Positions 2,750 to 56,340 of a DNA stretch of 59,532 bases are shown in pieces. The DNA lies in assembly GCA_002104945.1 (NCBI GenBank), contig MCFH01000102.1, forward strand, positions 1 to 59,532. Reading direction: 5' to 3'. The notes beneath the pieces were generated by a model that searched no databases, had not been told where the DNA came from, and saw only the letters and a list, made by a program, of their open reading frames with translations. Both the position numbers and the translations under genes were made by a program. Positions within the stretch are counted from its first letter, which is position 1, and each line of letters begins with the position of its first letter. This DNA is from Piromyces finnis finn. Its lineage: Eukaryota > Fungi > Neocallimastigomycota.

Positions 2750-3560
2750 CATAAATCGGAGCTCTAAAATCTGTATTATTATTTTTATCTAATACTAATA
2801 CTATTATTAATTATAACATTTTCATATTTTTTTATTTATCATCACTTTCATCACTTTTATTGGGTCAATACTAATGTTTTTTTAAGATATAAAATTTTCT
2901 ACTACTAATTTTTCTAAATACTCAATTTCATTCTATTGTTTTTTCTTTAAAACTCATACCCATATATTTACTATAACTACATTTGCTATCACCTATATTT
3001 TTTATCATATAATTAATCTTCTAATTGGATTATTATTTGTTGCATTTTCATATAAAGTAGTTATACTATTTAATTTATTTGATTCAATTGACATTTATGT
3101 GTTTTTTTGTTGATAATAGAAAATAAAATCTATATCCATTATTTTAATACTTTTTTAACAGTCAAATTCATATACAATTTCAAATTTTGAAACTGGATAA
3201 CTTCCGTCAATTATTTATATTTGTTGTAAAACTTTATATCTTATGCTTAATTAAAATTATTCATTGTGTATATTAGTTTTTCTTGATTCTTCATCGGTTT
3301 TTCATATTTATATGAAGGGATATAAATAATTTTCATATAGCATCAAATCAAGCAATTGGAAATTAATAGATATTGGTTAGGTAAAGAAAGTAATACATAG
3401 TGTGAATCTAATTAGTATTTGATCACCTGAAAAATTAAAACATAGTAATAATTTTACAAATAATATTATCATAGGTATCAGGTATCTCTTTCATAGAACG
3501 TAATTTCTACTTTCTGTAATTTTTGTATGGATAGAAATAAAATAGTTACATTAGTAGTTT
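2750..3560 (-). pseudogene. Degenerate paralog of the 29638..31465 gene (putative NCLDV early transcription factor large subunit-like)
   Basis: About 3100-3510 aligns by eye at DNA level with about 30930-31310 (e.g. gaatctaattagtatttgat). Multiple stops and a 7-bp tandem duplication (aggtatc x2, about 3473-3486). Confidence 0.7.
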
Positions 3561-8091: not shown

Positions 8092-8919
8092 GTTTATTAA
8101 TTTTTAATAATATGGAAAGAGTATAGTGCTTTTTAAAAAGATATATAACAATATATTTATCAATAATGCTAAATTATTGTTCTAACCTCTATAATTATGT
8201 TAATTTTTTATACTAAATAAAATAGGAAATTATATTATAATATATATGATAGGATTAGATTATTTCTTATTCTTATTATATAAATATAAAATAAAGAATA
8301 TTAAGTTTTAATATTTAATGTTACCATTTAACCTTTATTAAAAAATGGGAGAATCTTTACAATAAATTTACAATAAAGTTTTTATAAATTTTTAGAAATA
8401 AATATTAAAAAAAAATTAAATACATTAAAAATAAGTGAAAGATTTAAATTTTGACTTTTCAAAAAGTTTTAATAATTTACATGACTCTATAAAAATGATA
8501 ATTGTAAATTACAAAAATATTATTATCCATATGTTATGAAAAGTGATGTTTTTATCACAAATTTAAATCTTGGAGCTTGTTAATAATATAATTTAAATTA
8601 TTTCTTAATATTTTTATAAATATTTCATCTTTAAATAAAATAAAAGAACAGAAATACAAAAAAATATATACTTTCAATTAAACATTTACATTAATTATTA
8701 TAAAAACAAAAAAAAATTATTAAGTTATAAAGAAAAAATTAAGTTAAAATCCATAGAAAATAGCATTTATTAATTTCCCTATTATTTATATTAAAATATA
8801 GTATTTATTAAAAATATTTTTTCTGACTTTTTACCTGAAAAACTCCCAGTTTAAAATGTTTAAAAGAAGTAGAATTTTTTAAAAAAAGTCGTCAATGTTT
8901 AACTAAATTATTAAAAATT

Positions 8920-12332: not shown

Positions 12333-14250
12333 TTCCCCCTCAAACTTGATTTCATTTTGAAATTCAATATTTTAAAGTTTTGTTTTAAAATGAAATAAAA
12401 TAAATAAAAAATTTTTTTTTTTTTTTTTAAATTTTAAAATTTTGTCAAATTATTATGAATATATAAGTATAATAATGCTTTATATAATATATTGCTTCAC
12501 AAAGATTTTTACCTGTGAAATTATTGATTATTACTTTGATGGTGTATGTGTATCCGAATAAACTGGTTTCAAAACATACGCGGGATTTGTGGTTAAATTG
12601 TTATTAGAATTAGATTTAAGTTTTGATATCTTACATTTCAGATAGTAGCCATTACACTTCGCCTCGAACACAAGCTGTTTGTTTGAATCACTTTGGGAAT
12701 AATTATTTTTGCTACAATCATGCGGATCTTGATTAATTATTTTAATGTGATTTGGTTGTTGAATGGTATTTATAAATTTAATTCTGATGATACTATTAAT
12801 ATCTGGTTCGTGGTTACTTATCTCATTATTTTGGATATCAAATAAAGTTAAAAATACTTGATTGTTATGATTTTTTATTTGAGTGCTAATACCAGATTTC
12901 GTTAACTTTATCCCACTTATCAGGTTTTTATTGACGTCCTTTGAATATAGAACCTTATCTAAAACTATTTCAAAAATACATGATGATTTATTTGTAAAAT
13001 TCATAATAATTTTTTCATCAATAAAATTTTTCAATATTTCTTTATTATTTGTGATATGTTCACTTGCTCCTGTATCATAGGTAGGTCCATATAGATGTTA
13101 TGTAACCATCATTTTTATCATGTGACCTTGAATCATTACTTGGACATATTTCTTCTGTATTTTCACCTGGAAAAACATTTTTAAGAGCTAGTTCGTCAAG
13201 TATATATTTCATGTGCTCAACCTTTAATTGGTCAGAATGTATGTTTATGTAACATTCATTTTCAGGGTTAGAAATATTTGGATCATCCATTTTTTCATTA
13301 CTCTTTATTTTACTTTCAATATTGTCAGCTGTAGGTCCGAACATTGTATTTAATTCTTCATAGCATGGTATACTATCTGTGGTTTCATTATTTTCAATGT
13401 TGGAACAATATTTATCTTCATTGGCTTCCCTTTTGTATGAGAATGTTTTGTGGGCTTGTTTATTAGGATGTGTTTCATTTTTCTTTGTTCTTGTAGGTCG
13501 GCATGGATTGTAATGACAGTCCTTAACTGAATGTCCAGAAATGTTGCAAATTATACAATATTTATTATTTCTATGATGATATTTGTTTATTCTTTTATCT
13601 TTTGTGTATTTCTTTTCTATATTATCTATATCCATATAATCATCATGAAAGTCTCTATATTCATTGATGAATGGATTATTATAATGATTGTTTCCATTTC
13701 TAGCGTTTCTTGTGTTAAAAGAGTTATTATCTCTTTGTTGATTATCTTGTTTATGTTTAAAATTTGGGTTGTTATATTCCATCTGATAGCAAATAACAGT
13801 ATATCTGTTTTTATGATTTCGTATAATGTTTCGGGTGTGTATTGAGAACTCATTAATATTTTATCCATGAGGATATTTGGTAGAGCGTTGTATATAATTG
13901 TTATTTTTTCCATGTTTGATTTGTTCATGCATGAGTTTTCGAGTAATTTAAATAACTCTATAATATCATTCATGATAATCATGGTTTCCTTAAGGTTGGT
14001 GGCCTTGAGAGGTCCTAACCTTCTTGACCACTCTCCATGGTTGGAGGAGTCATCCAACTTGTACAAGCTCTTGAGTTTCTCCATCTTCTCATATGCGGAC
14101 TCACAGTTCATAATGTACCTTTTAACAGAGTCAGTACAATTTGTAAAAATGATTATTCCTGCGAGTGCTTCATTTGGTTCAAATTTGCTTGGTTTCTTGA
14201 ATGTTTTGTAGTTACTCTTGATGTAACTCCTTTGCTATTCTCGTTTTTTT
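12127..14250 (-). mobile_element. Ty1/Copia LTR retrotransposon remnant (Gag-protease, 3' LTR; no integrase/RT visible)
   Basis: Zinc knuckle CIICNISGHSVKDC. Protease WTYDTGASEHIT is restored by removing a 4-bp duplication (TAGG x2, 13078-13085). Polypurine tract GAGGGGGAA (minus strand of 12333-12341) abuts an LTR. Confidence 0.85.
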
Positions 14251-17491: not shown

Positions 17492-19144
17492 TTATACATT
17501 AAAAATCCATTGATCATGATCAATATATCTATTAAAATATTTAAGAAATTCATGGTTTTTTATTGTTGTAGATAATATGTAAGTATTTTTATCATCTCCT
17601 CCTGCTTTTTTTAATTCTTTTAAAATATATTTTACCTTTTGTTCTGATGATCTTTTATCAATAACAAAGAGATTTTCAATAATTTTATAGTTGTCGTTCT
17701 TCAAGGCGAAAGTATACCATTCATCTTGAAAATCGTTGTAATGAAGAAATTCCTTTACCAATAATAAAAATGTTTTATTCTTCTTTTCTTTTATTAATAA
17801 TTTTAATATATATTGAGGTATATTTAACTTTTCAATTTTTTTAAATTTATTTTTTAATATTTCAATAATGTAATCGAAATTTTCATATGAAAAGTTTTTT
17901 TGATGAATTAAAAATTGTATCACATTGTTGAAGGAATTGTCCTTATCCAAAAATCTATAATTAATATCCGCACCTTTAGAAATAAGAAAGGTGCACACAT
18001 CTCTTCTATTTATTAATAATGTATAAATGACTAAAGGTACTGATTCATTAATTAATGAATTTGGAATCTCATAATTGAAATTGGTGTATGAGAATAAGCT
18101 TATTATTTTTTTAAGTGAATCAATAGAAAATCCTGAAGTAATACAATTTGTTAATACGTCATAATCTGAAGAGTTTATATCGCTTATTAACATTTCATTT
18201 TCTTGATAAAAATAAAATATTCTTTCCATATTTCCGTTCTTTATGAATTGACTTAATTCCATTCTTTTCTTAATCAAAATTTTATTCAAATATCTGTTAA
18301 GATGATTAATATCTAATATATTATTTAAGAAAATATTTTTATACTTATAGTTAATTATGAATTCATATAATTTAAGGGAGAATCCAGGATATATTATATC
18401 ATTATTATTATCCATTATGAATTCAATTTTTTCTCTAATTGAACTTGGAATATCATAACATGAAAAAAATTTTAATTGATCAAATGAACTACAATAAATA
18501 CACCTATAGTACCATTGATATGGTACATCAAAATTTCTTTCATTAATAATTATTTTATCAAATTGATCTTTCGATATGCTTTTTTTTGATTGGTATATTT
18601 TAAGTAATTTAATAACAAAGTTTTTATCGCACTTATATTTGATATATTTGGATGCTAAATTGAAGTTAAAACTATAATTGTAAATATAATCTTTAATCTC
18701 CATTATATTCCAATTTTTGTTTAAAAGATATGAAAGAGTTTTAGTAGTTAGTAAATTTTTTTCAATTAATAATTTGACTATATTAATATTGTGTTGAGTA
18801 AAATTAATATCGCCCCCTTTGCTGATAATGAAATCTGCAATTTTAAAATGATTGTTAGCAATTGCAGAGTATAATGGGGACTTTATTTCACCATTTTTGA
18901 AAATGATGAACTTGTTAAGCGGATAATTCTTTTTTTCAATTAATAAATCTAAATATGCAATTGGAACATTGTATTCAATTGCAGAAATGACCTCATCAAA
19001 ATCTTTTTCCTCAATTAAATGGTTTGGTTGAATCATTTCATTTGATACTTCTATATCCTCAAATAACTCTACATCTGAAGTGTAAGAATTATTTGACAAG
19101 ATCATTGTTGAAGTTTCAGTACTATCAATTTCAAAAGATGACAT
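17492..19144 (-). CDS. Ankyrin-repeat protein (550 aa)
   Basis: Intact ORF with ankyrin motifs SPLYSAIANNHFKIADFIISKGGDINF and VCTFLISKGADINY. Confidence 0.9.
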   Translation of the reverse strand: MSSFEIDSTETSTMILSNNSYTSDVELFEDIEVSNEMIQPNHLIEEKDFDEVISAIEYNVPIAYLDLLIEKKNYPLNKFIIFKNGEIKSPLYSAIANNHFKIADFIISKGGDINFTQHNINIVKLLIEKNLLTTKTLSYLLNKNWNIMEIKDYIYNYSFNFNLASKYIKYKCDKNFVIKLLKIYQSKKSISKDQFDKIIINERNFDVPYQWYYRCIYCSSFDQLKFFSCYDIPSSIREKIEFIMDNNNDIIYPGFSLKLYEFIINYKYKNIFLNNILDINHLNRYLNKILIKKRMELSQFIKNGNMERIFYFYQENEMLISDINSSDYDVLTNCITSGFSIDSLKKIISLFSYTNFNYEIPNSLINESVPLVIYTLLINRRDVCTFLISKGADINYRFLDKDNSFNNVIQFLIHQKNFSYENFDYIIEILKNKFKKIEKLNIPQYILKLLIKEKKNKTFLLLVKEFLHYNDFQDEWYTFALKNDNYKIIENLFVIDKRSSEQKVKYILKELKKAGGDDKNTYILSTTIKNHEFLKYFNRYIDHDQWIFNV

Positions 19145-19320
19145 TTTTTTTATAATTTAAACGATTTTTATTGTGCTTACGTGTTTTTTAAAAATAATAA
19201 TTTATTTTGTTAAATTGTAAAAACAAGACAATAAATTTAAAAAATAAAAATGATAACAATATAATTATATTTACAATAAATAACATTTTAAACTTTTTTT
19301 AATAATTAATATTCATTGAT

Positions 19321-19527
19321 TTAAAATGATTCGTTAATTAAAATATCCTTAATAAATAAAGTTGTACTTTCTTTTTTCTTATCTCTTTACAGTTTTAATT
19401 TTATTTTTTATTTTTAATATTATTATAAGTTATTTAATTAATATTATAATATATAAATATTAGATATTAGATATTATATATTAGGTTTTTTTAAGATATC
19501 ACATTTTTAAATGGATCAACCATTTTT
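19321..19527. promoter_or_regulatory. Second copy of the conserved upstream blocks, including inverted repeat AAATGG-ATCAA-CCATTT
   Basis: Matches 1400..1574; the palindromic core is at 19509-19525. Confidence 0.55.
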
Positions 19528-20509
19528 AAGATTTAAATAAAAAAAAAAACTATTTTTTCAATTCAAAGATCATATTAATTAAAATTTTTTTTTAATATTT
19601 AAAAAATATTTTAAAAAAACTTTTATAAAATATGATAATAAATTTCAATAATAATTACCTATTATTTAAACTTATTATTTATCTTAATATTATATTTTTT
19701 TTTATTAATATAAAATTATGAACTTTTTTTTTATTATAATAATCCCCTTTCATTTGTAGTTTCAAAAAATTTCAAGGGATAATATTCCAACCTACTTGAA
19801 ATATATTTATTATTATCCATAATAATATGGTAAATATTAATTTCATTCAAAATATAATTTGCTTTTTATCATAAACATCTATATAAATTCAATGTATCTT
19901 TATCGTCAGTATTTTTTTTAACATTCTATTTAATTCATATGAATTATGAATTCATAAATATAATATATTAATTGTTTATTACGCATTGATACATTGTTAT
20001 AATTTAGTTAATATTTAAAAAAAAAATAAAAGTGAATCTCAGTTTATTTATTTTTAAAAAAATTTATGACTTAAACAACAAAAACTAATTGTAATCTTAG
20101 GTAGAATAATAATATTTTAAAAGAAATAACGGTTTCCTCTATTTCTATATGTAATTCGATAGATTCTGAAAATCTATCAACAGGAAAAAATTTTTATCCC
20201 ATATTTTAATGTTTTATTTCTCTACATTTTTTACTATCCTCTTTTATAGGCATTTTAATATTAATTATTATAAATTTAAAATCTTTAGTTTTATCAATGA
20301 ATTAAAAATATTCAAATATAGTTATTTAGTATATATTAGATAATGTTGAACTAATATCTGTTGATAATATATTTATATAATTTTTTTTTTTTTTTTTTTT
20401 TTTTTTTGAATATTAATAATAAAGATATGTAATTTTTATTTATTAATAGCTTTAATTTAATTAAATTACATTATATATAAAAAATTAAATAATAAAATAT
20501 ATAAGAATT

Positions 20510-25499: not shown

Positions 25500-27070
25500 A
25501 TAAAAAATTAATTTTCTAATAAATATGATTTAATTGCATATTCATAATATTTTATATTATTCAAATACGAAAATATAAAGTGTACAAGCGGAATTAAATT
25601 ATTTTTTATTTTATAACAGTAATAAAAAAATTTCAACGTCATTATCTGTAAAACCAAAATACATTGTTGTCCAGTTAGGTGATGTAATTGTAAATTCATT
25701 AAATTCATTTTGAAAATTAAAATCTAGATCTCTTATATACTCATTGATAGGTAAAATAAATAAATTAAATTAATTGAACTTTTAATAGAATAATAATATT
25801 ATGTTATTTGTTATATTAAAAAAGTTTTAAAATAAGAAGAAAAATAAAAAGGCTGTTAATTAAATCAATATTTCTTTCTTCATTATAATGTTTTATTTAT
25901 AACATTAAATTAATTATTTTATTTTATAATCTTCTTTTCTTTCTTGTTGTTTTTCTTATTTCTTTTTTAGTATTATTTACGGTACTCTTTGTTATTCTTG
26001 TTCTTCCTCTTGTTCTTTTTCTTGCTTATGTTTTTGTTGTTGTCTTTGTAATTTTAACATATTTCTTATTATCTTCAATGATTTGATTTAACATACTATT
26101 TTTATATATTTTAATTTGATTTAAACTTTCATCTTTTTCAGTTGATTTGGGCTCATCTACTTAAATTCAAACTTTTTCAAATCGTCTTGGTCGTACTATC
26201 AAATATACATTTCTATCATTGTTAATAAAAGTTTGTATCATTCTAGTTTTATCAACAAAATAAAACTTATCAAGATCAACATCTATATACGCTTCTCCAG
26301 AATATACTTTTTTTGGCATTTCTTTTCTTTTGAATTTCTCACCATAATTTATTTCATAAATTACATCACATTCTTCTTTATAGATAGCTATTCCATATTT
26401 AATAATTTTTTCATTTTTTTTATTTAAGCTTTTTCCATTAAATATTAATTCTTCATTATTATCCAATGCTTCATAACAACTTTTATTAAATTCAACATTT
26501 TTTAGTTTTTCTTTCATTATAAAATAAATATTTTTTGATGAAAATTTACTATTATCACCGTCATTTTGATATTTCTTATCAACAAATAATAATTCACGAA
26601 TATTGCTTTTTTCATTAAAATTATTCTTAGTAATAATTTTATAATCGTCTTCTAAACATAACAATGAATAGATATTAGCATAGCATAATAATTATCTAAA
26701 AAGCTAGATTGGTTATCATAATAGTTGACTATATTATTAATTTTACTTTCAAGAAATTCTTTTATTCTTTCTTCATCATAATATTCTATAAAATTAATTC
26801 CATTAATTATTTCATTGTTACTTTTATACAAATTCTTTTTCCATTCAATAAACTTATCTTTAATTAATTCTTCAATTACTTTATTTCTTATTATTAATTT
26901 TTTATTATTTTCATTTTCTGTATTAATATCAATTAGATAATCATATTCAATAAATAATGACCAAATAATACAAAGTTCAATTTCTGTATTTATACACTTT
27001 TATTCATCATCATTCGATTAAATAATTAAAACATTAATAAATATAATATATTATATATATAATATATTCA
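25500..27070 (-). pseudogene. AAA-ATPase-like/PD-(D/E)XK pseudogene, apparently tandem-fused units
   Basis: IIKYGIAIYKEECDV (nuclease end) runs in frame into MPKKVYSGE...YFVDKTRMI...RPRRFEKV (AAA start). YFGFTDNDVE lies near 25640. 26080-26150 matches 14850-14920. Confidence 0.8.
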
Positions 27071-28149: not shown

Positions 28150-29029
28150 TATATTTAAAATTGTGTTGTTTTTGTAAAGTATTCCTTGTAATAAAAACAT
28201 CCCATAATAAATTCACTTTTTAATATGCTATTGACTGAATAGATTATGTAATCTGTATTTATAAAAGATAAACCCTTAATATAGAAAGGTATATTAACAT
28301 CCACAATAAGTATAATTCTAATGTATCTTACTTTACACTATTAATAAAATATTCAAAATTCATAGTTTTAATAATATTAAAATAATGATATAACTAAAGA
28401 TTAATATTACAAGATATTAGATATTGTTTCCCCTCCCACTTTCTTATTCATGCCTATTTAAATAAAAAAGATTACATTCTATTTTCCAAATTGTATGTAC
28501 AACAATATATATATTTATTGTGTGCTACATAATGTATATATTGTGGCTTATACCTTTGATCTATTACAATACATTAATCATTGTAATACATTCTCAAAGT
28601 TTTTTTTTATTTAATCAGCATTTAAAAAAGTGGAAGAAAAGAATCCTTTTCTCCAATGAATTATACTATAATCCATTTTATTATGGGTTAATTTATATAA
28701 TTCTTTCAATTCATTATTATCATTTGTATTTAATTTGCGGAAATAACTTAATGCTGATTGTGTTACAGGTTTACCAACTGATTGAGCTGCTAAAATACCA
28801 ACATGAGTATTTTACGAGACTTGATTTTATCCACAATTATTTTAGTAAACTTATCACAGTCAATTTCTTCTGCTTTGATTTTTTTCTTTAAATAATTTCT
28901 TACTTTATTATTTATTTGATCAATATAAGGAATCAATCTTTTATTTTCTTTAAAATTTTTAGAAATTTCGTTACATATATAATCAATATCTTCAACAGAA
29001 AAATATTGTATATTTTGAGATTCTTCCAT
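28150..29029 (-). pseudogene. Divergent RNA polymerase largest-subunit (RPB1/beta') C-terminal part, stand-alone and frameshifted; putatively viral
   Basis: After a frameshift near 28810 the frame reads NTHVGILAAQSVGKPVTQSALSYFR (motif at 28758-28802), matching the conserved VGxLAAQSIGEPxTQxTLNTFH. The ATG at 29029 has an in-frame stop 6 codons upstream. Confidence 0.72.
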
Positions 29030-29637
29030 ATTTGAAATATTTATTTAAAATATATTTATATATTTATAAAATATTTATAAAATATTTAAATAAAATATCT
29101 ACAAAATATTTACTATAAATTTACAAAATATTTATAAAGTATTATTAATTATCATTTTATAATTTAATACATATATATGAATTATAAATAAATTATACAA
29201 TCTTTTTATAAAGAATTTACAAGAGAACTCAATATTTTTAAAAAATTATTTTAATTTAATACATATTTTATGATTTTATACTAAACACAGTTTATTAATT
29301 AATATACATAATTAATCTATAAATAACCTTTATAAATTAATGATATTAAAACTATTTACATTAATACATATAGAATATCATGAAATTAATTATACATTAC
29401 TAATAATATATATATATCATTATACATATATATTATATATTATTATTATACATATTGCAATGAATTAATATTATGCTTTTAAATATAAATTTGTTAATTC
29501 TTTATGATAACAAATTACAATATTGAATTCCAATTTTAAAAATTATTATTTAAATAATAACAAAATAAATAAATAAATATAAAATTTAAAAAAAAAAATA
29601 ATTTTATGCATCTACGATAGTATTAATATCTTATTAA

Positions 29638-31465
29638 CTAAAAAATCATATAAATAGAATTATTTTTGAAAGATGAATAGGTAGATCCATCTAAATTTCT
29701 TTTTAATATTAAATAAGGTTTATTAAGGATAGTTGATTTTAATATTTCTATGGATGCTTTACATGGATAATAAACTTCATTATCCCATACACCATAAATA
29801 ATAACTTTTTTATTGTTTTCATCCATAATACTATAATGATATGCAGTTATATTTTTAATATTTTTACATAAAAAAGAAAATGATGGTAGTGTATTGTATA
29901 ATTTATCATTATCTTTTATTATCGGTATTGTTGGTATTATTTCTGAATAAATCGATCTCCATAAATATACCTTTTTATCTGGAAATTCCTTTTCTGTTAT
30001 TAAAACTGCTTTATTATCTGAAACTTATTGTTTAATGTATTTAGTTAATGTAGCATTATCTATGATTGAAATTGAATTTTTTTAAACATAGAAAATATAG
30101 CTTGAACAAAATCATCATTAAAATTGAACAAATTCTTATCTGAACTTACTACATATTCATATCTATAATTAGGAAGTGTATATAATTTACATGTATTTAA
30201 CATTATTATTAAAAAGGAAAAAGAAGAATTACAATTGTAGACATAATCAAAAACACAATATGGATATATACTCATATTATTATCTACTGAAAAAGAAAGT
30301 ATATTAATATCATTGTAATTGTAATTTTCATTTATTAATTTTAATTGTTTATTCTTAAACTTTTCTTTTACACAATTTATTAATTCCTTCTGACTAGGAA
30401 TATTAATATGTTTATTTCATTTAGAGCATATTATAAATTTATTATTTATTTCTGGAATATCAAAATATTGTCTATATAAACCTTGTAATTCATAACCATA
30501 AGAAAAGGAAATTTTCCTTTACAATGTTTGTCTAATTTATATGCTATATTAAAATAAACAGATTTTTCTTTTTCTTTGTACTTTCTTATCACTTTAACAC
30601 ATTAAGGAACAACATTTGATTCTTATTCTAAATCAAATAATATCTTTTTATTATGAAATACAAAGTTATTATCAGTAGAATTTTTATTTGTTGAAAGAAT
30701 AATTTTATATCCTGAATTTTCTGGTGATCTATAATAATTATTATACCACTGTACATACGGTAAATTATTCTTAATACATTTTTCTTTATCAGCAATTACT
30801 GGTAATATCTTATCCTTATTATAAAAATATCTAGTATAATATTTTCCAAATAATCGATTATAATTTATTTTTAATGGAATATTTAATTCTTTATTTTTTT
30901 TATAATAATTTACATGAAAATCAATATACAATAAATAAAGATATTTTAATATTATTTTAACAGTCATATACATATACCATTCTAATTCTTGAAATTGGAT
31001 ATTTTCTGTAAATTGTTTATATTTATTATATAGTTTCATATTTAATGACTGATTAAAGATATTTATTGTATATACCAATTTTTCTTTATTTTTTATTATA
31101 TCTTCATTTTCATCGGTATATATATAGGGATATAAAGCATTTTCATATAACATCAAATCAAACAATTGAAAATTTATATTTATTGGATAAGTAAAAGAAA
31201 CAATACTTGGTTTGAATCTAATTAGTATTTGATTACTCGAATAATTTAAACATGGTAATAATTTACAAATAATATTATCATAAGTATCTCTTTCATAAAA
31301 AGTTATTTTATTTCCAGTGATTCTTATACTATCATGACAACCTTTAATAATTATGAAATTATCTGAATCTTTAACATCCTTATTTTTATTAATAATTATT
31401 ATTTTATGTTCATTAGATAAAAAATGTTTATCTAGTAAATTACGGATTAATTCAATAATATCCAT
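29638..31465 (-). pseudogene. Putative NCLDV early transcription factor large subunit (A7L/VETF-L)-like pseudogene
   Basis: The 280-aa ORF continues through stops into 30060..30275 and 29638..29826. YTRY...LPVI...YYRSP...NVVP*CVK resembles from memory the YxR...P...YYxCP...PCC.K block. Intronless and adjacent to the RPB1 fragment. Confidence 0.45.
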
Positions 31466-32471
31466 TAATTATAAATTAATTTTATATTAAATATAAATTA
31501 AAATTATTTTATTAATATATAAATTATAATATATACTAATCATTTTATAATTGTGAATGTTTATTTATTAATTTAATGTTATATAAAAATATATGGTAAA
31601 TATAAGTAAATATATATTTAAAATAAATTATAATGTATTATAATTATTAAAAAAAAATATATTTATTACTATTAAAATAACTTATTAATATATTTTGAAA
31701 TAAATATATAAAAAAAAATACTTACTAAACTAGTTAGAAGTAATATAATATTCTTTTTAACAACATTTTTTTAATATATATTATATAAAAAGTATTTTTT
31801 ATTTGAAAATAATATTGATTTAAAAATAAATAGTTTATTTAAAAATAATATAAATATTTTTTATAATTAAAAGTTTTTAGTAAAATATGCTTCATCTTGG
31901 TAATTACAAGTTTATGAAAATTATAATATAATATTTATATCAATATTAATCATTTAGTATTCATATAATAAAGGAATGATGTTTAAATGTATTTACATTC
32001 ATTTGAATTATAAAATAAAATATTAAAAATAAAAGTTTATCTTAATTAAATATATATTATAGTTTCTATTTAATGTTGTTATTGTATTTAATATGATGTA
32101 ATTATTATATATTTTAAATAAAATATCTATTATAATCTATAAAAGAAAATAATAAGATATATAAATATAAAAGTAAATGTTTCAATAAAATAAAATATTA
32201 CATATTTTATAAATATATAAATAATTATTTCATTAATGCAAATTATATAATGTCTAAATAATAATTATTTATAAATATATAAAATATAAGAAATATCATT
32301 TTAAATATTTTATTTTAATTTTTTATTATAAGTTATAAAGATAATGTAATAATATAATAATATTTTTTGTTTTTTTTTTAATGGCATCAAATATTTTTAA
32401 ACTATATTATTAATATAAGATTAATTATATTTCAGGTTTTATTTTATATAATTTTTATAAAATAGATTAAA

Positions 32472-33209
32472 ATGAAGGATATTATTTTAGTAATATTTTC
32501 ATATATATATTTTATATTATATTTTCATAATGGATATACACGTACTATAACTATTGAATCTATTGATATTCCAGATGAACTTATTAATCGTAAAGAAACA
32601 TGGGAACGAAAATATAGTAATGAAAATGAAATAAAAGAAGGTTATGTATTTCCTAGAATAGAATATTGTAAAAATAATTTGTGTACCTTTTTTGAAGAAT
32701 ATCAAAGTAAATATTTTATTGAATTTGATAATAACAATGGTACCATATATAGATATATATTAGGTAATTATGGAGATAGCTATAATACATCTGATCTTTA
32801 TCGTACAAGAACTATTAATAGTGAAACTGTTCATGTTTATATTGGTTGTAAAACAGATAATCAATGTTTCTCAGATAAATGTGTTAATAATATTTGTGTA
32901 TTTAATAATGAAGCTAACATTGAACGTTGTGATACTTTATATATAAAACATATTGTTCTTTCATCAAAGCCTAAACATTATACTCATTGTGGTCGTTTTC
33001 CTTATAGTTCTTGTACAAAATCTTCAGAGTGTTCGTTTAATAGTTGTAGTGGTAATGGATTATGTAGTAATGGTAGAAATTATGAACCTTCTGATAGTGA
33101 TATGATGACTGTAGCATTACATAGATGTGTTTTTGTAGCAATAATAATAGGTATTCTTACAATAACTTTTATTTGTTATTGTTATAAAAAATATTATAAG
33201 AAAAATTAG
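32472..33209 (+). CDS. Cys-rich secreted/membrane-anchored protein (245 aa)
   Basis: Intact ORF with a hydrophobic N-terminus, CKTDNQCFSDKCVNNICVF and HCGRFPYSSCTKSSECSFNSCSGNGLC, a C-terminal TM segment (VFVAIIIGILTITFICYCY) and a basic tail. Confidence 0.85.
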   Translation: MKDIILVIFSYIYFILYFHNGYTRTITIESIDIPDELINRKETWERKYSNENEIKEGYVFPRIEYCKNNLCTFFEEYQSKYFIEFDNNNGTIYRYILGNYGDSYNTSDLYRTRTINSETVHVYIGCKTDNQCFSDKCVNNICVFNNEANIERCDTLYIKHIVLSSKPKHYTHCGRFPYSSCTKSSECSFNSCSGNGLCSNGRNYEPSDSDMMTVALHRCVFVAIIIGILTITFICYCYKKYYKKN

Positions 33210-33702: not shown

Positions 33703-34759
33703 GTAAATCCCCCCTTTTGAACGTGCCTTCATTTATTTAATAAATGGAGTTTCTCAAGGGGCTCTACTCATACTCATGGTACTGAAAGAGTAGAAAGAAT
33801 AAAATCCAAGTATTGCGCAATGGATGCTTGGTTAGTCTTTATTTGGAAATATTGTTAGGACTAAGCTCATGGTACTGGGCGAATAGAGTCGATAATTTGA
33901 GTGTTAGTTGTTATATCATATATCCCTTACACCTTCAACTTATTTTAGATAGTAGTTGCTTTAACAACTTTTATAACATATTATTTTAAACTTAAAATTG
34001 TTTGATTCGGTAGTATTAAATACTGATTTTGAATATTTTTTCATTTCATTTTTATTTTAGCTTTCATTGATAATTTGTTATCCCAGTTTACTACTTATTC
34101 TCTTTGTTCTTTTATTCCTTTTTTATTCTCTATATATTGATTAGTCAGATAGTTTTGTTTTCTTTCAGTTAGTTTGTTATTCCTTTCATTTATTCTTGAG
34201 TTTCGTGTGGGGTGCGGCTTTCATTACTATAATCATATTTAATCTTTTTATTTTTTTCTATTTCTATTTTTATTATTTTCGAGGGGCGCGGCTTTTTTTA
34301 TTTTTCTTTTATGATTTTATATGATTCAAGTAATATCTTTTTTATTTTTTATTTTTTGTAATTCACAATCACTCGGTACCTATTTCATTCTAAAAGTCAA
34401 TGGAAAATGCCCGCTAAAAGCCATGTTACTTATACACCCACTTTCTAAAAAACTCCCAATCTCTAGTAAAATATCTTGGAAATTCATTAATAAACTCAAA
34501 AACAATAGATCATACAAAAACAAACGATCTATCAAATCTACTACTAGTCCACTCTCTGACGATTTCTATTTTAGTCATTTAAATTAAATTTGTTTTAAAA
34601 TTATTTAAATTATTAATTTTTAAGGGTTACACAATTAATTATAAATATAAAATTGAAAGAGTATAAATTTTTTTCTTAATTACAAATAAAATAATAATAA
34701 AATTAATAAAACAATAAGCTAATACTAGTTTTTATTTAAATATATTATAAATTTAAATT

Positions 34760-36395
34760 ATGAATAGTAGTAATATTACGAATGAGAATAAAAAAAAGTA
34801 TGTAAGAAATTTAATTATTGATTCATTTAATATTTTCTTAAGTAAAAATACAAAAAAAGATTTAGAAGAATATAATGTAGAAGATAGAAATCTGGATAGA
34901 ATAGGAAATTTAGATATAAGGATTCCAAGAAATTTAGAAACATACCATGAATTTCATATGCAAAGTTGTCGAAATCCGGAAATCCAGTTATTAAGTTTAG
35001 CAAAAAGTTATAATAGAGCTATCAATAATAATTATAATAATAAAATGTTTCCTGATCTAAATTCGTTTAAACTTAAATTTTCAGACGACATATTAAATTT
35101 TGAAGATTCTGGTTATGAAGATGCAAACCTTAAAATTACTGAAAATCTTGATGAATTAAACTCTGCAAAAACAGAATATAAAAACAATGTAGTCGATATG
35201 TTTTCACATTATTTGATTAAAAAGTATGATTCGAAATTATTTAGAATGAGAGATGTTGAAAATATACAAAAAGAAATTAATGAATTTAATGAAAAATTAG
35301 CCATGGCTTTAGATCGAGAAACTATTTTTTGTAAAGATTTAAATGACCTCGCTAAAAAATTAAACGAAGATAATAATTATGACAATGATAAGGTATTAAA
35401 ATCAATTAATGATATATTAACCCATCCATTTAATGTTGAAAGTGGCTATAATCAAATGATAAAACAAATAAATAAAAATTACTTTGATATTAAAGGTAAT
35501 AACCATAAATATGTCACTGGTAGAAATTATGATATATCGAATTATGAAAATGTAAATGATTTCGATAAATTGAATGGGCCACAAAGAACAGCCGTTAAAA
35601 ATATTATTTATTAATCACCATTGTATTTAAAAAATTTAAATACCGATAAAAATAGTCCCTATGCCTATTTAGAAAAAACATTTGCCGCATTCAAAGATCA
35701 AGTATTAGAGAATATATTACCGATTGCTTCCGAATGTTCCAATATATTTAAAGAATTAAATCCAAATGTTTATGTCATTGCACCAAAAAAATACACAATT
35801 AACAAAAAGGAAAGAGAAATAGATTTTGAAAATGAAAAAGTTTATTATATTAATAGTAATGGAAACTTGTAGTAATAGAAAAAGAAGAAACAAATAAGAA
35901 AAATAAAACGGAGACAAATTTTAAAAAAATAAAAGATTACCTAATTCCAAAAAATATTACGACAGTTTATATTGTTCAAACAAAAAAAGAAGAAAACTTA
36001 AATTCATCACTTGGAAATCGCAATCTTTTTGTGGTATATAGTGATTATAATTGCAAAATAGAAAAAGCCGACAGTGAAGGAAAATTAGATACAAAAAAAG
36101 ATTATCGTAAAGTACATTTATGTGAAGAAGTGGAAGTTGTTTTTGCCAAAGTAAATAATCCAAACTACGTAAAAGATTCCAATGTAGAGTGTGAAAAAAA
36201 TAAGTATTTTGATATAAATGATAATGGAAAAATTTACCTTCATAGTGACGAGGTAGAAAAGCTAACATTTTCCTTTGAGAATGACAATAATGAATATGAA
36301 ATAAAGTTAAGTAATATTGAAATAGATACAAAAAATAAAATTAAAAGAAAAGAAAAGGATAATAAAAAACAAAAAAATAAAAGTAAAAATAAAAA

Positions 36396-36408
<13 letters not shown>
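34760..36408 (+). pseudogene. About 550-codon gene of unknown function with one in-frame stop and one frameshift
   Basis: ORFs 34760..35614 and 35621..35872 share a frame across a single TAA. A frameshift near 35866 continues LVVIEKEE... into 36031..36408. Confidence 0.7.
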
Positions 36409-39878: not shown

Positions 39879-42800
39879 TTATTTTTTTATTTGAAGTTTC
39901 ATCATTTTTACTTTTGTATATTTTATTTTGTCATCATTATCATTTATATTTTTTATGTGATTTTTAATATCATTATTTATAATGTTATCGTATTCAATAT
40001 TTTTATCATTATAAATATTATTTCTATTACTGTCATTGAATGTCAAATAATTATTGAAAATTATTGAATTGTTTTTTATATCATTAATTGTTAAATCTGC
40101 AAAATTTTCATTACTTATAACGCTGATAAAAGAATTAACAATACTTTCAATTAAATTATTATCATATATTAATTCATTATATTCAAAGAAAATTTCATAA
40201 CTATTTTTCTTTTCAGTAATAACAAAGATTAAATCAACTAATGAAGAAATTTCGTTTTTAATTTCTCTTATTTCTTCTCCATCAATTGTATTTGACCTAA
40301 TTAAGTTTAATATACCTATTTCATCTGTGTTCATCATTTTGTAAGGATCAAATTTAAACATAGAATTACAATTTGGGATATTTAATCCTTCTTTTACTTT
40401 AAAAAGTGGAATATCATAACTAAAAACTGTATAAATAATTTCCATATAATTTTTAATAAGATTAATTATATTTTGATCTTCAAAATGAATTAAAATTGGA
40501 ATATATTTTGCAAACATTCCAATTATTTTATCAGTAAAACTATTTTCTCTATTTGAATATATAATATTAGTATAAATGCTATTTTGGCCTGAATATAAAG
40601 ATATTACTAAACTATAAGCTATTAAAAAGAACACAGTCTTTGATAAACTGTTTTCCTTGGTGATTTTATTTACATTATTATATGTTTCAATATTTGTATT
40701 AATAATTATTCTTTTTAATTTTATTTTATTTTCAACAGTAGTTCTTTTGATTGATTTGACTGGTAAATTTATATTTTGAATTTCTTTATCAAATATTGAT
40801 TTATAATAATTTAATTCCTTTGAAAAATTATTACTTTTGATTAGTTTATCATAATAAATAGCAAAATCTGTATATTGAATAGGAAGATCGGTTAATTTTT
40901 GATCATTATAAACTTTTGTCAACTCATTTATCAATATACCATATGAATATCCATCTGCTATTCTATGATCAATGTCTATCATTAATACTGAATTTTCAAT
41001 TAATCCAACTCTAATTAAAAGGCCATCATTATAGTTAAATGGTTTTAAAAAGGTATTAAAATTTTCTTTACTGTAATATTCAAAATTTAATTTAACATTA
41101 TTATTAATTTTTCCAATTATAATTGTTTTACCTTCTTTTGTTTTCTTTATAAAATTTGTTTTCAACACTTTGTGTCGATTAATAATAACGTTAAATGATT
41201 GCTCTAGCTTTTTTAAGTTAATATTATTTAGTTTAATCTCAAATAATTGCCACATATGACTTGAATAATACTTTTGGTCTATAAATTTCACTTCTTCATC
41301 AATTAAATCTACCCCAAGGAAGCTTACTATAGACGTTATTGGATATTCGTCTATTTCTTCAATTTTTATATCTTCCTTAATTGAAGATTTTTGATCATTG
41401 GCAATTTTATTTTTAATTAAATTCACTATATCTTTTATTTTATTATTTTTTATTATATCATTTATTGATATATTAATTTTAAATGCTTCTTTTATTTCAG
41501 ATATTACTCTAATAGTATTCAAACTATCTCCACCCAAAGAATAGAAATCATGAGAAATACCAACTTCATCTTCATTTAATTGGAATATTTTTGCATAAAT
41601 ACTACATATCTTCTTCTCAACTAATGTTTCCGGCGCTTGATATTCTTCTTTAAGCAACTCATCTAAATTAGGTTCCGGTAATTCCTTTTTGTTTAATTTT
41701 CCGTTTACAGTTACTGGTATTTCTTTTATTCTTATATAGAATGATGGCACCATATATAATGGTAATTTCATTTTAAGATATGTTTTAATTTCATTACTCA
41801 AATCTTCCTCACCATTACTCATATAATATGCTATCAAATATTTTTCACCATTTTGCTTTTCTTTAACAATAACAACTACATATTCTATTGCCTTAATTTC
41901 TTTTATAACATTCTCAATTTCTTGGATTTTTAAACGTTGGCCGCGAATTTTAATTTGATTATCATTTCTACCTAGGCAAATTACTTCTCCTTCTTTATTC
42001 CATTTTCCAAGGTCTCCAGTTTTAAACATTTTCTTTGATTTTACTCTTCCTTCCTTACTTTTAAATGGACATTCAATGTATTTTTCTTCTGTTAATTCCT
42101 TTTGATTCAGATATCCTTTTCCAACACCTTTACCTGAAATATAGATTTCACCTTTCACGCCAATTGGAACTACTTTCATGTATTTGTCTAATATATAAAT
42201 TTCAAAATTGCACAGAGGTTTTCCAACTGTAATTATCTTATTATTAATTCCATTTCTATTTTGGAATGTATCTAATAATTTAACATTCGAAACAACTGAT
42301 GTTTCTGATGGTCCATATACACTGTAAACATTTGAATTACTTATTTTTTGAATATCCATCACGGTTTTATAATCTACCTTTTCTCCTCCTAATAATATAT
42401 GTTTAACATTTCTTATAGATTTTGCAAAATTTTCTTGATACAAATAATTATTAAATCTTGATGGTACAGTGAAAATATAATTTATATTATACTTAACTAT
42501 TAAATTGCCTATTAAATAGGGATCATTATATTCTTTATCATTACATAAAATAATTTTACATGCTTTTAATAATGGATAATTTATTTCTCCTATAGAAATA
42601 TCATGTGTAAATTTACAAATGGCTAGAACACTATTCATGTCATTTCCATAATATTCATTCTTTCCACATGTACTTTGACTATATAAACAATAATTTATAA
42701 GATTATCATGACTAATAATAACTCACTTAGGTTTACCTGTAGTTCCCGAGGTAAAAAGAATATAACAAGTATCGCTACTTTCGTTAATATTTGAAATTTC

Positions 42801-45800
42801 TTGAGTATTCATATCATAATCATGAAGTGATAATGAATATTCACGAACTTCATCAGTTTGTATTTTCTTTTTATTATCTATATCAGTGACACACACGTTA
42901 AAATTATCTTAGCATCAACTTCGTTTACCATATATTTAATACGACTGATCGGAAATTCTGGATCAACTGGAAGATAAGCAGCACCACTTTTCATTACACC
43001 AAGAATTGCTATTACAAAATAATACGATCTTTCAGAAATAATTGGAACTATATCACCCCTTCCGATTCCTGCATTTCGGAGGAAATGTGCTAATGAATTG
43101 GATTTTTCGTCTAATTCACGATAACTTATCTTTTTATCATTACATACTATCGCAATCGCATCTGGATTTTGTTGTGCAACTCTACTAAATTCAGTGTGAT
43201 ACAATTTATCACTTTCATATTCATATTGATTACTGTTAAATGCTCTTAATATTTTTTCTTTTTCTTCTGAAGGAATGTACTCCAGTTCAGTAATGTTGAC
43301 TTTTTCATAGTCTTCAAGACTTTTTATAACTTCAATATAGCTGTCAATCATTTTCTTCATCATGCTAGAATCAAGTATACTTTCATTATAATTAACGGAA
43401 ATTAAATAATTTTCTTGATTTTCAACTACATTAAAAGTAATATCAAATTTGTACGAATTTTCTTGAACAACTATTCCATTTGTGTTTGATTCTGTATTTG
43501 AATTTTCATATATTGTATATATTTCATTTATATTTTCTTTTTTAAATATTGTGTTATTATTTCCATTTTCGAAAATAATACGAGATTGGAATACAAAGGC
43601 ATTATTCAAATTCTTAAGCTTAAGTTCTCTTTTCAATTCGGAAAATGATACATCTTGCTTATCATAAATATCCATAAGAAGATTCGTATTCTCCTTAATC
43701 AAATTCAAAAATGTTTCATCTGCATTTTCATAATTTAGTAATATTGGTTGAGTACTAACAAACATACCAATCAACTTTTCAGTATAATAATTATTGCGAT
43801 TGTTACTTATAAGTGAACTATATATGCTATCTTGATTGCAGTATTTTGACAAAATAAATCCGTAGAGCGTAATGAAAAAGGCTGTTTTACTAATACCGTG
43901 AAGGCGTACATAATCATTAATCTTTTGGTTTGTTTCTTTATCAAGATCTTTCATAATAATTCCATTATTACCATCAATCTTTTCACTTTTCTTATCATCC
44001 TCGTTATTTCCTGTTTTACCGTCAAAAGAATCGTAGTTAGCTACAACTTCTTTCTTTGGAAGAAGTTGTAGCTAACTGTTACCACCAAATTCATAAAAAT
44101 CCGAAAACTTATCAATATATTTTTCATTAGTATTAGTAACTTCACTAAAAAATTTAATTAACAACTTTTCTAAACTGGTTAAAGGAATATATGTTGCTTT
44201 ATTATAATTGCTACCAATATTAGGCTTTGGTAACTTACTTCTATCTAATTTTCCATTAAGATTTAAAGGTATATTTTGAATTCTAATATAAAATACTGGA
44301 ACCATATAAAGTGGTAATATATCAATCAAATATTCTTTAATATATTCTTCATTAATATCATTATTTTTAGTTCTAAAATAGCATATTAAAATATTATTCC
44401 CTTCATGGTTAAGACTATTCACGCATGTAAAACTAATATCCTTTATTGTATTAATGGCTGATTCAATTTCATTGATTTCTATCCTCTGTCCTCTGATTTT
44501 TATTTGTAAATCTTCTCTACCATAATATTTAATATTACCATCATTATTCCACTCACCAACATCACCTGTATTATACATTATATTATTATCAATAGAATGA
44601 TAAAGTGGGCACTTAATAAATTTTTTTCTGGTCATTTCTTCATTATTAAAATATCCTTGACTTATACAATTACCAGAAATAAAAATTGTACCTCTTTTTC
44701 CAATTGGTAACGGATTAAGATTATCGTCTAAAATGTAAACTTTACAGTTACAATTAGGTTTTCCAACGAAACTATAAGATTCATTAATTATATTAATATC
44801 TGTTATTTTGTAAAAACAAATCATTGATGTTGTTTCTGTTGCTCCATATCCACAATACAATTCAGCATTAGTAACTCTTGATATATCTTTTAAAAAATCT
44901 AATGTTACTATTTCACCACCAAATCCAAAATACTTAATATTCATTAAAGATTTCTTGAATATATTATTTTCCATATAATTTTTAATTCTTGTTGGTGTAC
45001 CAACCATAAAATCAATTTTATATTTTGTAATTAAATTTCCTAGAGCTTCAGAATTATTATATTCTATATCATTACATAAAACAATTTTCTTATTATGTAA
45101 TAGCGGATAAAATAATTCAGCTATAGACATAATATAATTAAATTTTGTATATGCAATAACATTGTTATAATTAATAAAGTAATCTTTAACTCCATTATAT
45201 GTTTGGGCATATAAGCAAAAATGAATTAAATTAATATGGCTAATTACAACTCCTTTAGGTAACCCAGAAGAACCAGAAGTATATGTTAAAAAACAATAAT
45301 CTTTACTCTCATTAATATTTGAAATTTCTTCGGTATTATTATTATAATTATGTTCTTCTATATTAACAATTTCCATGTGTTTATTACTTTTTTTAAATAA
45401 AATTCTATTTTCAAAATTAAATTTGTCTACTAAAATAATAGATGCCTTTACTTCATCTATAATAAACTGTTTTCTACTATTCGGATATTCTGTTTCTATA
45501 TATACAAATGCACCACCAGCTTTCATAACAGAAACTGCAGCAATTATAAAATAGAATGATCGACCACACATAATTGGAATAATACTATTTCTTTTAACAC
45601 CAATACTTCTTAAATAATTTGCTAAGGAATTACACATCTTATTTAATTCTGAGTAGGTTATATCTTTGTTATCATAAACAATAGCTTTATGATTTGGAAA
45701 CATATTTACAACTCTTTTAAATTCCTCGTGATATAATTTATTAAGATTATATTCGCATTTATTAGAGTTAAATTTACGAATTATTTCAAGTGGATCATCT

Positions 45801-45871
45801 TCAAAATTATTTCTAATTTCATGATGAGAATTCCCAATTATTGAAAATTGGTTAAAATCTTTATTACTCAT
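39879..45871 (-). pseudogene. Non-ribosomal peptide synthetase pseudogene: A1-T1(truncated)/[deletion]/C(half)-A2-T2-C(terminal)
   Basis: A-domain motifs YTSGSSGLPKG, FTSGTTGKPK*, YGPSET, KTGDLG and QIKIRGQR; T motifs FGGNS and LGGDSL; C motif DHRIADG. Lesions: TAG at 44072-44074, frameshift at (AC)4 42889-42896, TGA at 42723-42725. Confidence 0.93.
44035..44077. repeat. Perfect 18-bp inverted repeat with 7-nt loop at the NRPS junction
   Basis: agttagctacaacttctt (44035-44052) / tctttgg / aagaagttgtagctaact (44060-44077). Confidence 0.97.
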
Positions 45872-45901
45872 ATTGTTATAATTACTTTTACTTCCAATAT
45901 T

Positions 45902-45903
45902 TT

Positions 45904-45946
<43 letters not shown>

Positions 45947-45977
45947 GGCATCAAATATTTTAAACTTTATTATTAAT
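45902..45977. repeat. Short dispersed repeat (polyT-AA(C/T)GGCATCAAATATTTT...), second copy at 32371..32414
   Basis: About 45-bp core near-identical at the two loci. Confidence 0.75.
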
Positions 45978-46181
45978 TTAATTAAAATTATAATACATGT
46001 AATAAAATATTTTTATTCTTTTATCTTTTTACTTTTTTATTAATGTATATAGCTATATATATTTATAAATATATATATAATTTTAATTTTAATTATATAC
46101 TTTATAAAATAATAAGTATTTATTACTTCAAAGTATCAATATAATTATATTAAATAATAATATTAGAATGTTAGAATTTTT

Positions 46182-47423
46182 TTGCAAAGTTTTTGCTTTT
46201 ATAAATATTTTGAAAAAAAAATATTTATAAAAAAAATGTACAATCCTAAAAAGAAAGTATTAACTACCACAGAAGAAATGAATCAAAAATTTGATCAAGA
46301 ACTCCAAGAAGGAGACGAGGATATTCTTTATGAATATAAACGGGTTATGAATGATGCAGAAACAAATAAACTTCCAATTAAGATTGTGAAATTAGCTAAG
46401 GAATATGATGAAATTGAATTTGATTCAAAACAAGAAATAGTAGATGCTATGAATCGTAAAAATCCAAAATATGGTGAATTCCATATGTCTGATATGGGTA
46501 GTCGTCGCATTGTTATTACACCATTTCAAAATATTTCACTAGGTATTGATCAATGTGAATGTTTTGGTATTCTTGGTCCAAATGGCTCTGGTAAATCAAG
46601 TTTATTGAATACTACATCTTTTACTTTTCCACAAACTCTTGGTAAAATTTATTACAATGGCAAAGATACAACTGAACGAAATGGTAATGAAATTACATTA
46701 GGCTACTGTCCTCAAGAAGATACCCTATGGAATGAATTTACTTTATTTGAACATATTGAAATGTTTTTGTATCTTCGTGGTTACACAAAAAAAGAAGCAA
46801 AAAAAATTACAAATGAATTTATTAACTATTGTCATTTAACAGAACATAAAAATAAAATGCCATATGAATTGAGTGGAGGCACTCGTCGTAAATTAAATAT
46901 ACTTATCGCCCTTTGTTGCTCTTCCTCTAAAATTATTATGGATGAACCTTCTGCTGGTATGGATCCTTCTACCCGTCGTTACGTTTGGGATATTATTAAA
47001 GCTACATTACAAAATAATAAATCTTCAACAATTATGTCTACTCACTCTATGGAAGAAGCTGAATTATTATGTAATCGTATTGCAATTATGGTTAAGGGAA
47101 GATTAAGATGCATTGGTACACCAGAACACTTAAAAATAAAATATGGTAATACTTATATTTTGGATGTTCATACAAAAGATATTAATGTATTCCATGAAGA
47201 AATAGTAATTGGTAAACAATTATTTGGTAATAGTGAATATGAACGTGAAGATAAATCACTTCAAAGAGTTAAATATGAAGTTAAAAATACAAATAGTATT
47301 AGTAAGGTCTTTGAAATTATGGAATCATGTAAAGAAGAAGGACTTTTCTATGACTATAGTTATAGTCAAACTTCTCTTGAACAAGTATTCCTTAACTTTG
47401 CTCTTAAAGGCACCCAATATTAA
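46182..47423 (+). CDS. ABCA-subfamily ABC transporter, C-terminal NBD/regulatory part only (5' part absent)
   Basis: Walker A GPNGSGKSS, signature LSGGTRRKL, DEPSAGMDP, STHSMEEAE and the ABCA-type tail YSYSQTSLEQVFLNFA. No TM domains in the ORF. Confidence 0.88.
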   Translation: MQSFCFYKYFEKKIFIKKMYNPKKKVLTTTEEMNQKFDQELQEGDEDILYEYKRVMNDAETNKLPIKIVKLAKEYDEIEFDSKQEIVDAMNRKNPKYGEFHMSDMGSRRIVITPFQNISLGIDQCECFGILGPNGSGKSSLLNTTSFTFPQTLGKIYYNGKDTTERNGNEITLGYCPQEDTLWNEFTLFEHIEMFLYLRGYTKKEAKKITNEFINYCHLTEHKNKMPYELSGGTRRKLNILIALCCSSSKIIMDEPSAGMDPSTRRYVWDIIKATLQNNKSSTIMSTHSMEEAELLCNRIAIMVKGRLRCIGTPEHLKIKYGNTYILDVHTKDINVFHEEIVIGKQLFGNSEYEREDKSLQRVKYEVKNTNSISKVFEIMESCKEEGLFYDYSYSQTSLEQVFLNFALKGTQY

Positions 47424-51028: not shown

Positions 51029-51040
51029 TTGCTCCCTTTT
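51029..51040 (-). other. Polypurine tract
   Basis: AAAAGGGAGCAA immediately before the LTR TG; repeated at 56314-56325. Confidence 0.85.
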
Positions 51041-51055
51041 AAAAAAAAAACATTG

Positions 51056-55102: not shown

Positions 55103-55471
55103 TATATTTAAATATAATTGTTATATAATATATATCACTAAAAAAAAAATTTTTTTATTAATAAAATTTATATTATATATTTGAATACTTATATTTGTAT
55201 ATTTAAAATCACTATTATAAGAAAATAAACTATATGTCTTTTAATATTATCACTATATTTAATTATTATTATTATTTGACTTAAAATTTAAATTTTTTTT
55301 TTTTTTTTTTTTTTTTTAACTAATTAATTGGAAATTTAATTTTTTTTTTTTTTTTTTTTTTTTAAACTATTTAATTGGCAATTTAATTTTTTTTTTTTTA
55401 AAACTATTTAATTGGTAATTTAAATTTTTTTTTTAATCTAATTGGCTACTTAAAATTTATCTATCTACAGT

Positions 55472-56313: not shown

Positions 56314-56340
56314 TTGCTCCCTTTTAAAAAAAAAACATTG

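Follow-up and report, generated by a model that had tools for sequence, protein, structure and literature searches.

A truncated RP1c pseudogene beside a predicted VETF-L pseudogene in Piromyces finnis, probably DNA of a fundsalphavirus-type element

Results

The RP1c pseudogene

What lies at the locus? In the window, by which we mean the whole stretch of 59,532 nucleotides analysed here, the minus strand carries the front part of a gene for the RNA polymerase subunit RP1c, and upstream of it a second gene of viral type (table 1). The RP1c start codon occupies 29029-29027 and an in-frame TAA lies six codons upstream. The first frame agrees with its relatives over 74 codons, to 28808, before it runs into a stop. 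The second reads NTHVGILAAQSVGKPVTQSALSYFR from 28811 and remains open until a stop at 28611; the motif that it contains is VGILAAQSVGKPVTQSALSYFR, a pattern that occurs once in the window and in none of 200 base shuffles. The two frames are separated by the loss of about three codons rather than by a slip of one base in a homopolymer. A motif near the N-terminus, a separate ATG, an upstream in-frame TAA and a frameshift were the features named in the original prediction, and all of them are found when the minus strand is read. The Pfam check that it proposed returned a match of the motif piece to RNA_pol_Rpb1_5 at E=3.3e-5 (23.9 bits), below the gathering cut-off of 28.5.

Table 1. Positions in the window of the RP1c and VETF-L pseudogenes and of the sequence adjoining them.
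Feature	Position	Strand	Remark
RP1c pseudogene, residues 1-74	28808..29029	-	ATG 29029; frame stops at 28790
RP1c pseudogene, residues ~77-128	28656..28811	-	other frame, past a short deletion; cleft/trigger-loop motif
Stop-rich non-polymerase sequence, joined behind the RP1c break	28150..28655		no match to the RP1c profile, stored proteins or Pfam
Very AT-rich spacer between the two viral-type genes	29030..29637		9-14% GC (250-bp GC windows)
Pseudogene of a ~730-aa predicted NCLDV early transcription factor large subunit (VETF-L)	29638..31465	-	Foldseek on a relative
Second, more decayed scrap of a VETF-L-like gene, separate copy	3142..3479	-	tblastn of P0005/P0003/P0001

Is the start genuine, and how far does the gene reach? 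The residues MEESQNIQYF open three P. finnis proteins just as they open window RP1c, and because of these shared first residues we take the start at 29029 to be real. Over residues 1-74 the window copy is 90.5% identical to the P. finnis proteins P0073 and P0074, and over residues 77-128 it is 94% identical to P0073; identity is 65-67% to P0048 and 60% to the intact P0051 (residues 1-68). The P. finnis gene model P0047 is identical to it over its first 57 residues and skips the same stretch, which suggests that P0047 carries the same lesion. Resemblance to intact relatives ends at 28656-28653, that is, at residue 125 of the 439-aa P0051 and residue 128 of P0073. The original prediction had carried the gene on to 28150, which is too far: the sequence behind 28656 is non-polymerase and matched neither the RP1c profile, nor any stored protein, nor, in six frames, Pfam. 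Used alone as a query, the 79-aa N-terminal piece found none of 94 candidates. A match of the same piece to Pfam LEF-9 (E=0.016) was treated as chance.

The histidine H1085 in the trigger loop of yeast Rpb1 has a catalytic role. Numbered through an alignment to the yeast protein, window RP1c shows an E-to-K change at the equivalent of E1074 and an H-to-R change at the equivalent of H1085. Both residues are kept in 31 of the 32 matched rows, many of which are near-identical. The lone exception is P0091, which is the gene model of the window sequence itself, spliced over the frameshift. A full-length chain, with an intact trigger loop and the C-terminal conserved block, is thus not encoded here. 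We conclude that window RP1c is a truncated pseudogene holding about a quarter of the subunit. With its frameshift, some three quarters of the chain missing and the trigger-loop histidine replaced, this copy is unable to make the RP1c subunit.

The surroundings of the locus

The window has 15-36% GC per 2 kb and holds ankyrin-repeat genes, NRPS modules, an ABC transporter and a Ty3 retrotransposon. Proteins encoded near the RP1c locus are 85-100% identical to Piromyces finnis gene models. This composition, these neighbours, the near-identical P. finnis proteins and the multiple lesions mark the locus as endogenous in an early-diverging fungus, and as disabled.

Several other features were recorded. 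Paralogous intronless ankyrin-repeat genes lie at 1-1742, 17492-19156 and 3949-8103 on the minus strand; the copies at 1-1742 and 17910-19682 share 68% DNA identity, and a 1384-codon ankyrin-repeat ORF contains three tandem repeats of about 40 residues. A decayed Ty1/copia-like gag-pol fragment with a Pol_BBD match occupies 12531-14234 (minus strand), and a broken AAA-ATPase-like gene (Pfam PF09820) occupies 26167-26999 (minus strand). Two intronless ORFs on the plus strand, 34757-35614 and 35860-36408 (285 and 182 codons), have no Pfam or NCBIfam assignment and may belong to another mobile element. NRPS modules with adenylation, carrier and condensation domains, broken up among several ORFs, lie at 39879-46012 (minus) and 46167-47423 (plus), beside the ABC transporter. 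Within 50197-59532 there is an exact direct duplication of 4051 bp (50197-54247 = 55482-59532, 100%), which covers an intact Ty3/Gypsy gag-pol ORF at 51056-55120 (minus strand); it reflects either tandem insertion in the very recent past or an artefact of assembly.

Might the frameshift and truncation then be assembly errors as well, the locus being an intact element or the contig a chimera? The perfect tandem duplication makes artefacts in this window possible. However, the damage takes the form of deletions several bases long and of stops created by substitution, not of slippage in homopolymers. P0047, moreover, joins the same RP1c start to the AAA-ATPase-like fragment 26783-26712, with 100% identity over 24 residues, so that a similar arrangement exists in the named P. 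finnis assembly. We regard assembly error as a most improbable account of the lesions.

Intact RP1c relatives and the split

Does the separate chain arise from decay, or was the subunit already split? A search with the motif piece gave nine matches among 29 candidates. Intact relatives, from Neocallimastix assemblies and metagenomes, are stand-alone proteins of 439-503 aa. The long ones among the nine matches (430-500 aa) start with a methionine some 80 residues ahead of the motif and share the C-terminal end ...IITGIY; four of them score 45-67 bits on Pfam Rpb1_5. In all stored relatives that retain the N-terminus the motif lies at residue 78-84, the spliced model P0047 standing at 58. Against yeast Rpb1 the intact relatives score about 45 bits, and P0051 aligns with residues 1044-1415, the portion encoded by archaeal Rpo1C. 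The position of the ATG and the stand-alone layout are conserved from Piromyces to Neocallimastix.

At three metagenome loci RP1c is one uninterrupted ORF, and at two of them a stop codon immediately precedes the ATG. Searches for the locus in viral contigs and in a first metagenome scan came back empty; a second metagenome scan yielded three gene-sized contigs, without neighbour genes. A scan of viral contigs for the motif gave six giant-virus loci, five with an unsplit frame of 1766 codons and one at a contig edge. Since the intact relatives are separate proteins whose motif lies at residue 78-84, we take the split to be ancestral. The claim that the gene encodes the C-terminal half of a split RPB1-type subunit is borne out.

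Two intact RP1c genes on gene-sized contigs, L001 and L002, begin (positions 1-60 of each) in a TAAATG context, which we take to be a poxvirus late-promoter signature. In L002 a long A run lies just ahead of the RP1c start and a T run at the far end (1654-1675).

The neighbouring gene

What is the gene upstream of RP1c? On the same strand, some 600 bp away, a second pseudogene (31465-29641) starts with an ATG at 31465. Close to the N-terminus some 130 residues have been lost in frame, and further on the gene is broken by premature stops at four places (30625, 30604, 30419 and 30027) and by two frameshifts (at ~30490 and ~30080). Over residues 156-728 of the intact P0005 it is 59-71% identical. 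Its relatives form a family of 726-748 aa that has no Pfam match.

The fold of these relatives was compared with known structures. With an AlphaFold model of P0003 that is of middling quality (mean pLDDT 58), Foldseek placed VETF-L at the top of a viral structure library (best E=3.9e-14, TM-scores about 0.2). Marseille-, Pitho- and Iridovirus proteins came first and poxviruses only from rank 30, so that poxvirus VETF-L stands far below that of the Pimascovirales. Against the PDB the best row was a chain of the poxvirus pre-initiation complex, a weak match at E=1.1e-3, followed by TBP structures; the size of about 730 aa is pox-like. On the modelled fold of its relatives, then, the neighbour is predicted to be VETF-L. 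To our knowledge VETF-L is known only from viruses. The RP1c model had a mean pLDDT of 34 and was left out of the fold search.

The second scrap (table 1) shares 76% DNA identity over 396 bp with 30942-31328; stop-rich sequence lies downstream of it, at 2400-3140. On the island's opposite side, 32466-33209 (plus strand) encodes a cysteine-rich protein that is predicted to be secreted and has a hydrophobic stretch at its C-terminus. It weakly resembles (E=7e-4) the N-terminal part that is fused to VETF-L in the P. finnis protein P0007, and that family may accordingly recur beside elements.

The state of this neighbour bears on another reading of the RP1c piece, namely that it is a domesticated fragment. 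A GT-AG intron of 68 nt (28857-28790) would bridge the frameshift, and the resulting 116-aa peptide might act on the polymerase of incoming elements, by binding or poisoning it. The GT...AG pair does flank the break, the database protein P0091 (116 aa) is exactly the spliced reading of the window, and P. finnis P0047 has the same predicted splice. Yet P0091 and P0047 look like automatic gene models, the splice takes out HVGIL, residues that are conserved, and no other matched row shows the E-to-K or the H-to-R change. The seven lesions of the predicted VETF-L gene suggest, besides, that the island is decaying as a whole. Only a slim chance is left to domestication.

Viral origin or host duplicate

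Could RP1c have come from a host Pol I, II or III largest-subunit gene, by duplication or retrocopying with truncation and fast evolution? Some observations point that way. The best solved-structure matches of RP1c, at low scores, are cellular Pol II and Pol I, and the AU test, discussed below, keeps a grouping of the element with Pol II. Against this, long alignments of the intact relatives with CTD-bearing Pol II proteins show only 22-25% identity, and the relatives have no CTD, whereas a host subunit would be a single chain with the catalytic loop upstream and high identity. At this identity a recent host duplicate is excluded; the comparison was made with CTD-bearing Pol II proteins and yeast Rpb1, not with the host's own RPB1, RPA1 or RPC1. 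Against a host duplicate there also stand the conserved ATG position and stand-alone layout, the predicted VETF-L gene alongside, and the published trees that put element genes with NCLDVs (PMC7017919). We consider the host-duplicate explanation very improbable.

How far do trees of RP1c itself reach? A profile search of 1.84 billion representatives gave 1976 matches, of which the best 150 were used. A tree was built with 129 protein rows, 53 of them stand-alone with the motif 55-110 residues from the start; among the 53 are four element proteins and at least four that are archaeal-like. The window fragment falls within the element RP1c clade with support 100. The nearest ESM Atlas cluster (score 0.96) is a 452-aa RNA polymerase family, 90% of it from viruses and most commonly Nucleocytoviricota. 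The stem of the element is very long, at more than two changes per site. In a quick tree of 51 rows neither the starred Pol II clade nor the starred archaeal clade includes the element. In an AU test of 28 rows, the element with Pol II was kept (delta lnL -5.3, p-AU 0.27), and the element with other split proteins was only marginally best (+0.32, p-AU 0.51). Rows shorter than 340 aa and P0076, which has no motif, were excluded; the 51- and 28-row sets are hand-picked subsets without the window fragment. None of the rows in the RP1c trees is labelled as Pol I or Pol III, and none is a virus with a name.

In these trees, RP1c by itself leaves the deep origin unfixed. Since the RP1c trees retain a sister position to Pol II, the case for a viral origin rests mainly on the predicted VETF-L neighbour and on the published loci. 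The original prediction of a viral gene, not a host retrocopy, stands in so far as the gene appears to be virus-derived and is no recent host duplicate; the trees do not dispose of Pol II as its sister.

Comparison with known systems

Which known split or viral polymerases does RP1c resemble? The stand-alone RPB1 C-halves of Nucleocytoviricota (about 420-500 aa) share its length and have the motif some 80 residues from the start. Most of them differ in carrying GE(R/K)QTQ where the element has GEPVTQSALSYFH, and the trees do not resolve whether they are its sisters. We take the pair 176R/343L of IIV-6 to be a split RPB1. In the available part of PMC5923455 the two are listed as one core entry.

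Archaeal Rpo1C (RpoA'') is the same portion of the largest subunit, made as a separate chain. Its motif lies at about 60 residues, against about 80 in the element, and on the archaeal model TIGR02389 the element scores 76-86 bits against a cut-off of 420.65. We rejected an identity with archaeal Rpo1C on this score and on the position of the element outside the starred archaeal clade.

A likeness to poxvirus RPO147, which the original prediction had drawn from the motif, finds no support. RPO147 is a single chain, unlike the split window gene, and it was absent from the best 60 of 68 and the best 60 of 112 solved-structure matches. The predicted VETF-L, too, meets poxviruses only low in its list. 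An RPO147 identity was rejected.

The closest published parallel outside the fungi is found in NCLDV-like regions of the moss Physcomitrella patens, where a fission into RP1n and RP1c was likened to the archaeal split (Maumus 2014, PMC4083422). These regions share with the elements the split RP1 and a compact gene set, capsid and packaging ATPase genes not having been found, according to the available part of that paper. They differ in their moss host and in a reconstructed region of about 13 kb (PMC4083422). VETF-L is not named among the 20 moss gene families, as far as the available text goes; eight of these are 'U' genes, of unknown kind (PMC4083422). For these moss relatives, plasmid and transposon readings were weighed and argued against (Maumus, PMC4083422).

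Relation to the fundsalphavirus elements

Is the lineage already known from gut fungi? Fundsalphavirus elements have been reported in five species of Neocallimastigomycota (Gong 2020, PMC7017919). In them RP1n and RP1c are separate genes, accompanied by RPB2, POL, D5 and a D6/D11 helicase, and the element genes group with NCLDVs in the published trees (PMC7017919). Three of the loci with POL-RP1c, MCFH01000019.1, 089.1 and 083.1, are drawn in Fig. S2 of that paper. Of the P. finnis relatives, P0074 (RP1c) is encoded on a contig of 857,073 bp, P0002 (VETF-L) on one of 168,386 bp, and P0048 (RP1c) and P0008 (VETF-L) on contigs of 127,315 bp. As a set, these three lengths are those of the three scaffolds just named, a match made by size. 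Window RP1c groups with the RP1c of published fundsalphavirus loci, equal scaffold size being the tie to those loci.

With the fundsalphaviruses, as far as they are described in the available part of PMC7017919, the window locus shares a separate RP1c, the host group, 90% identity to P. finnis RP1c, stops and frameshifts, and retrotransposons nearby. Unlike the mapped elements it consists of an RP1c stub and the predicted VETF-L only, with no DNA polymerase seen; VETF-L, for its part, is unlabelled in every fundsalphavirus map of Fig. S2 in PMC7017919. A family-B DNA polymerase, the formal fundsalphavirus marker of the available part of that paper, was found nowhere in the window, nor were RP1n and RPB2, in searches that took the ORFs to Pfam in part and used no element homologs as queries. 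Nor did D5, the D6/D11 helicase, a SAM methyltransferase, RPB2, RPB5 or RP1n appear among the ORFs scanned; decayed scraps in an island of about 3 kb could escape a scan made without element-specific queries. No credible terminal repeats surround the RP1c/VETF-L island. Having no DNA polymerase, the locus would likely be missed by the DNA-polymerase-based screen described in PMC7017919.

In the literature covered, from which most subscription papers are absent, a search for later work on these elements turned up Gong 2020 only. The Mycodnaviridae (PMC13533422) were set aside as a different clade; the part of the article available names neither Neocallimast- nor Piromyces nor fundsalpha. Among the Neocallimastigomycota loci of Fig. 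S2, chitin-binding genes of the ChtBD1 type are found repeatedly, and in a Zancudomyces locus POL is accompanied by LysM, ChtBD1 and a GH18 zymocin-alpha-like gene, which recalls yeast killer plasmids (PMC7017919).

The window locus thus belongs, as a decayed copy, to a lineage known from reports of 2014 and 2020, and the split itself has already been published. We are confident that 28656-29029 is the frameshifted and truncated front quarter of an RP1c gene, very probably DNA from a fundsalphavirus-type, NCLDV-related element inserted together with the predicted VETF-L.

Discussion

How might the intact element work, and how did its remnant arrive here? By alignment to yeast Rpb1 1044-1415, RP1c (439-503 aa) would supply the cleft/trigger loop, the jaw and the C-terminal clamp region. 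It would pair with a separate RP1n, which should hold the catalytic aspartate loop, with RPB2 and perhaps with RPB5, to assemble a Pol II-like enzyme. By analogy with poxvirus and NCLDV biology, VETF-L and a D6/D11-like helicase may recognise early promoters as in vaccinia, and the element could then be transcribed by its own system, without the host nucleus. A piece of element DNA would have been inserted into a fungal chromosome; two adjacent genes with an AT-rich spacer between them point to insertion of DNA rather than to a retrocopy. Deletions and point mutations would afterwards have accumulated by neutral decay.

Is the source of such pieces still active? The RP1c cluster to which P0052 belongs numbers 57 members. 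Of the 15 that are listed, 12, whose names point to two Neocallimastix assemblies, are intact (500-503 aa) and agree with one another at 93-99.8% identity; 12 of the 15 are found on contigs no longer than 137 kb. Metagenome contigs of up to 52.8 kb carry intact VETF-L, and for one intact RP1c and one intact VETF-L the longest contig has the same length, 42,490 bp. No capsid gene is reported for the intact Neocallimastix elements, and the published MCP tree, in the available part of PMC7017919, has no Neocallimastigomycota rows; a divergent capsid could escape. Against an active replicon, some RP1c copies sit on scaffolds of 0.2-1.6 Mb. We offer tentatively, as a possibility less likely than its alternative, that the fossil was shed by a still-active, small (tens of kb), capsid-less replicon of gut fungi, derived from NCLDVs and equipped with a split RNA polymerase and an early transcription factor of its own. 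If that were true, the yeast killer plasmids would have in this replicon a counterpart derived from giant viruses.

The lineage appears to carry a compact large subunit of VETF that goes unlabelled in the published maps available to us. Together with the known D6/D11 helicase, the predicted VETF-L would complete an early transcription system of poxvirus style. Neocallimastix assemblies and metagenomes contain many copies that are intact and nearly identical, and the lineage may therefore be active in culturable rumen fungi. If it is, the question raised by the moss work, whether such an element is a tiny virus, a plasmid or a transposon, would become directly testable.
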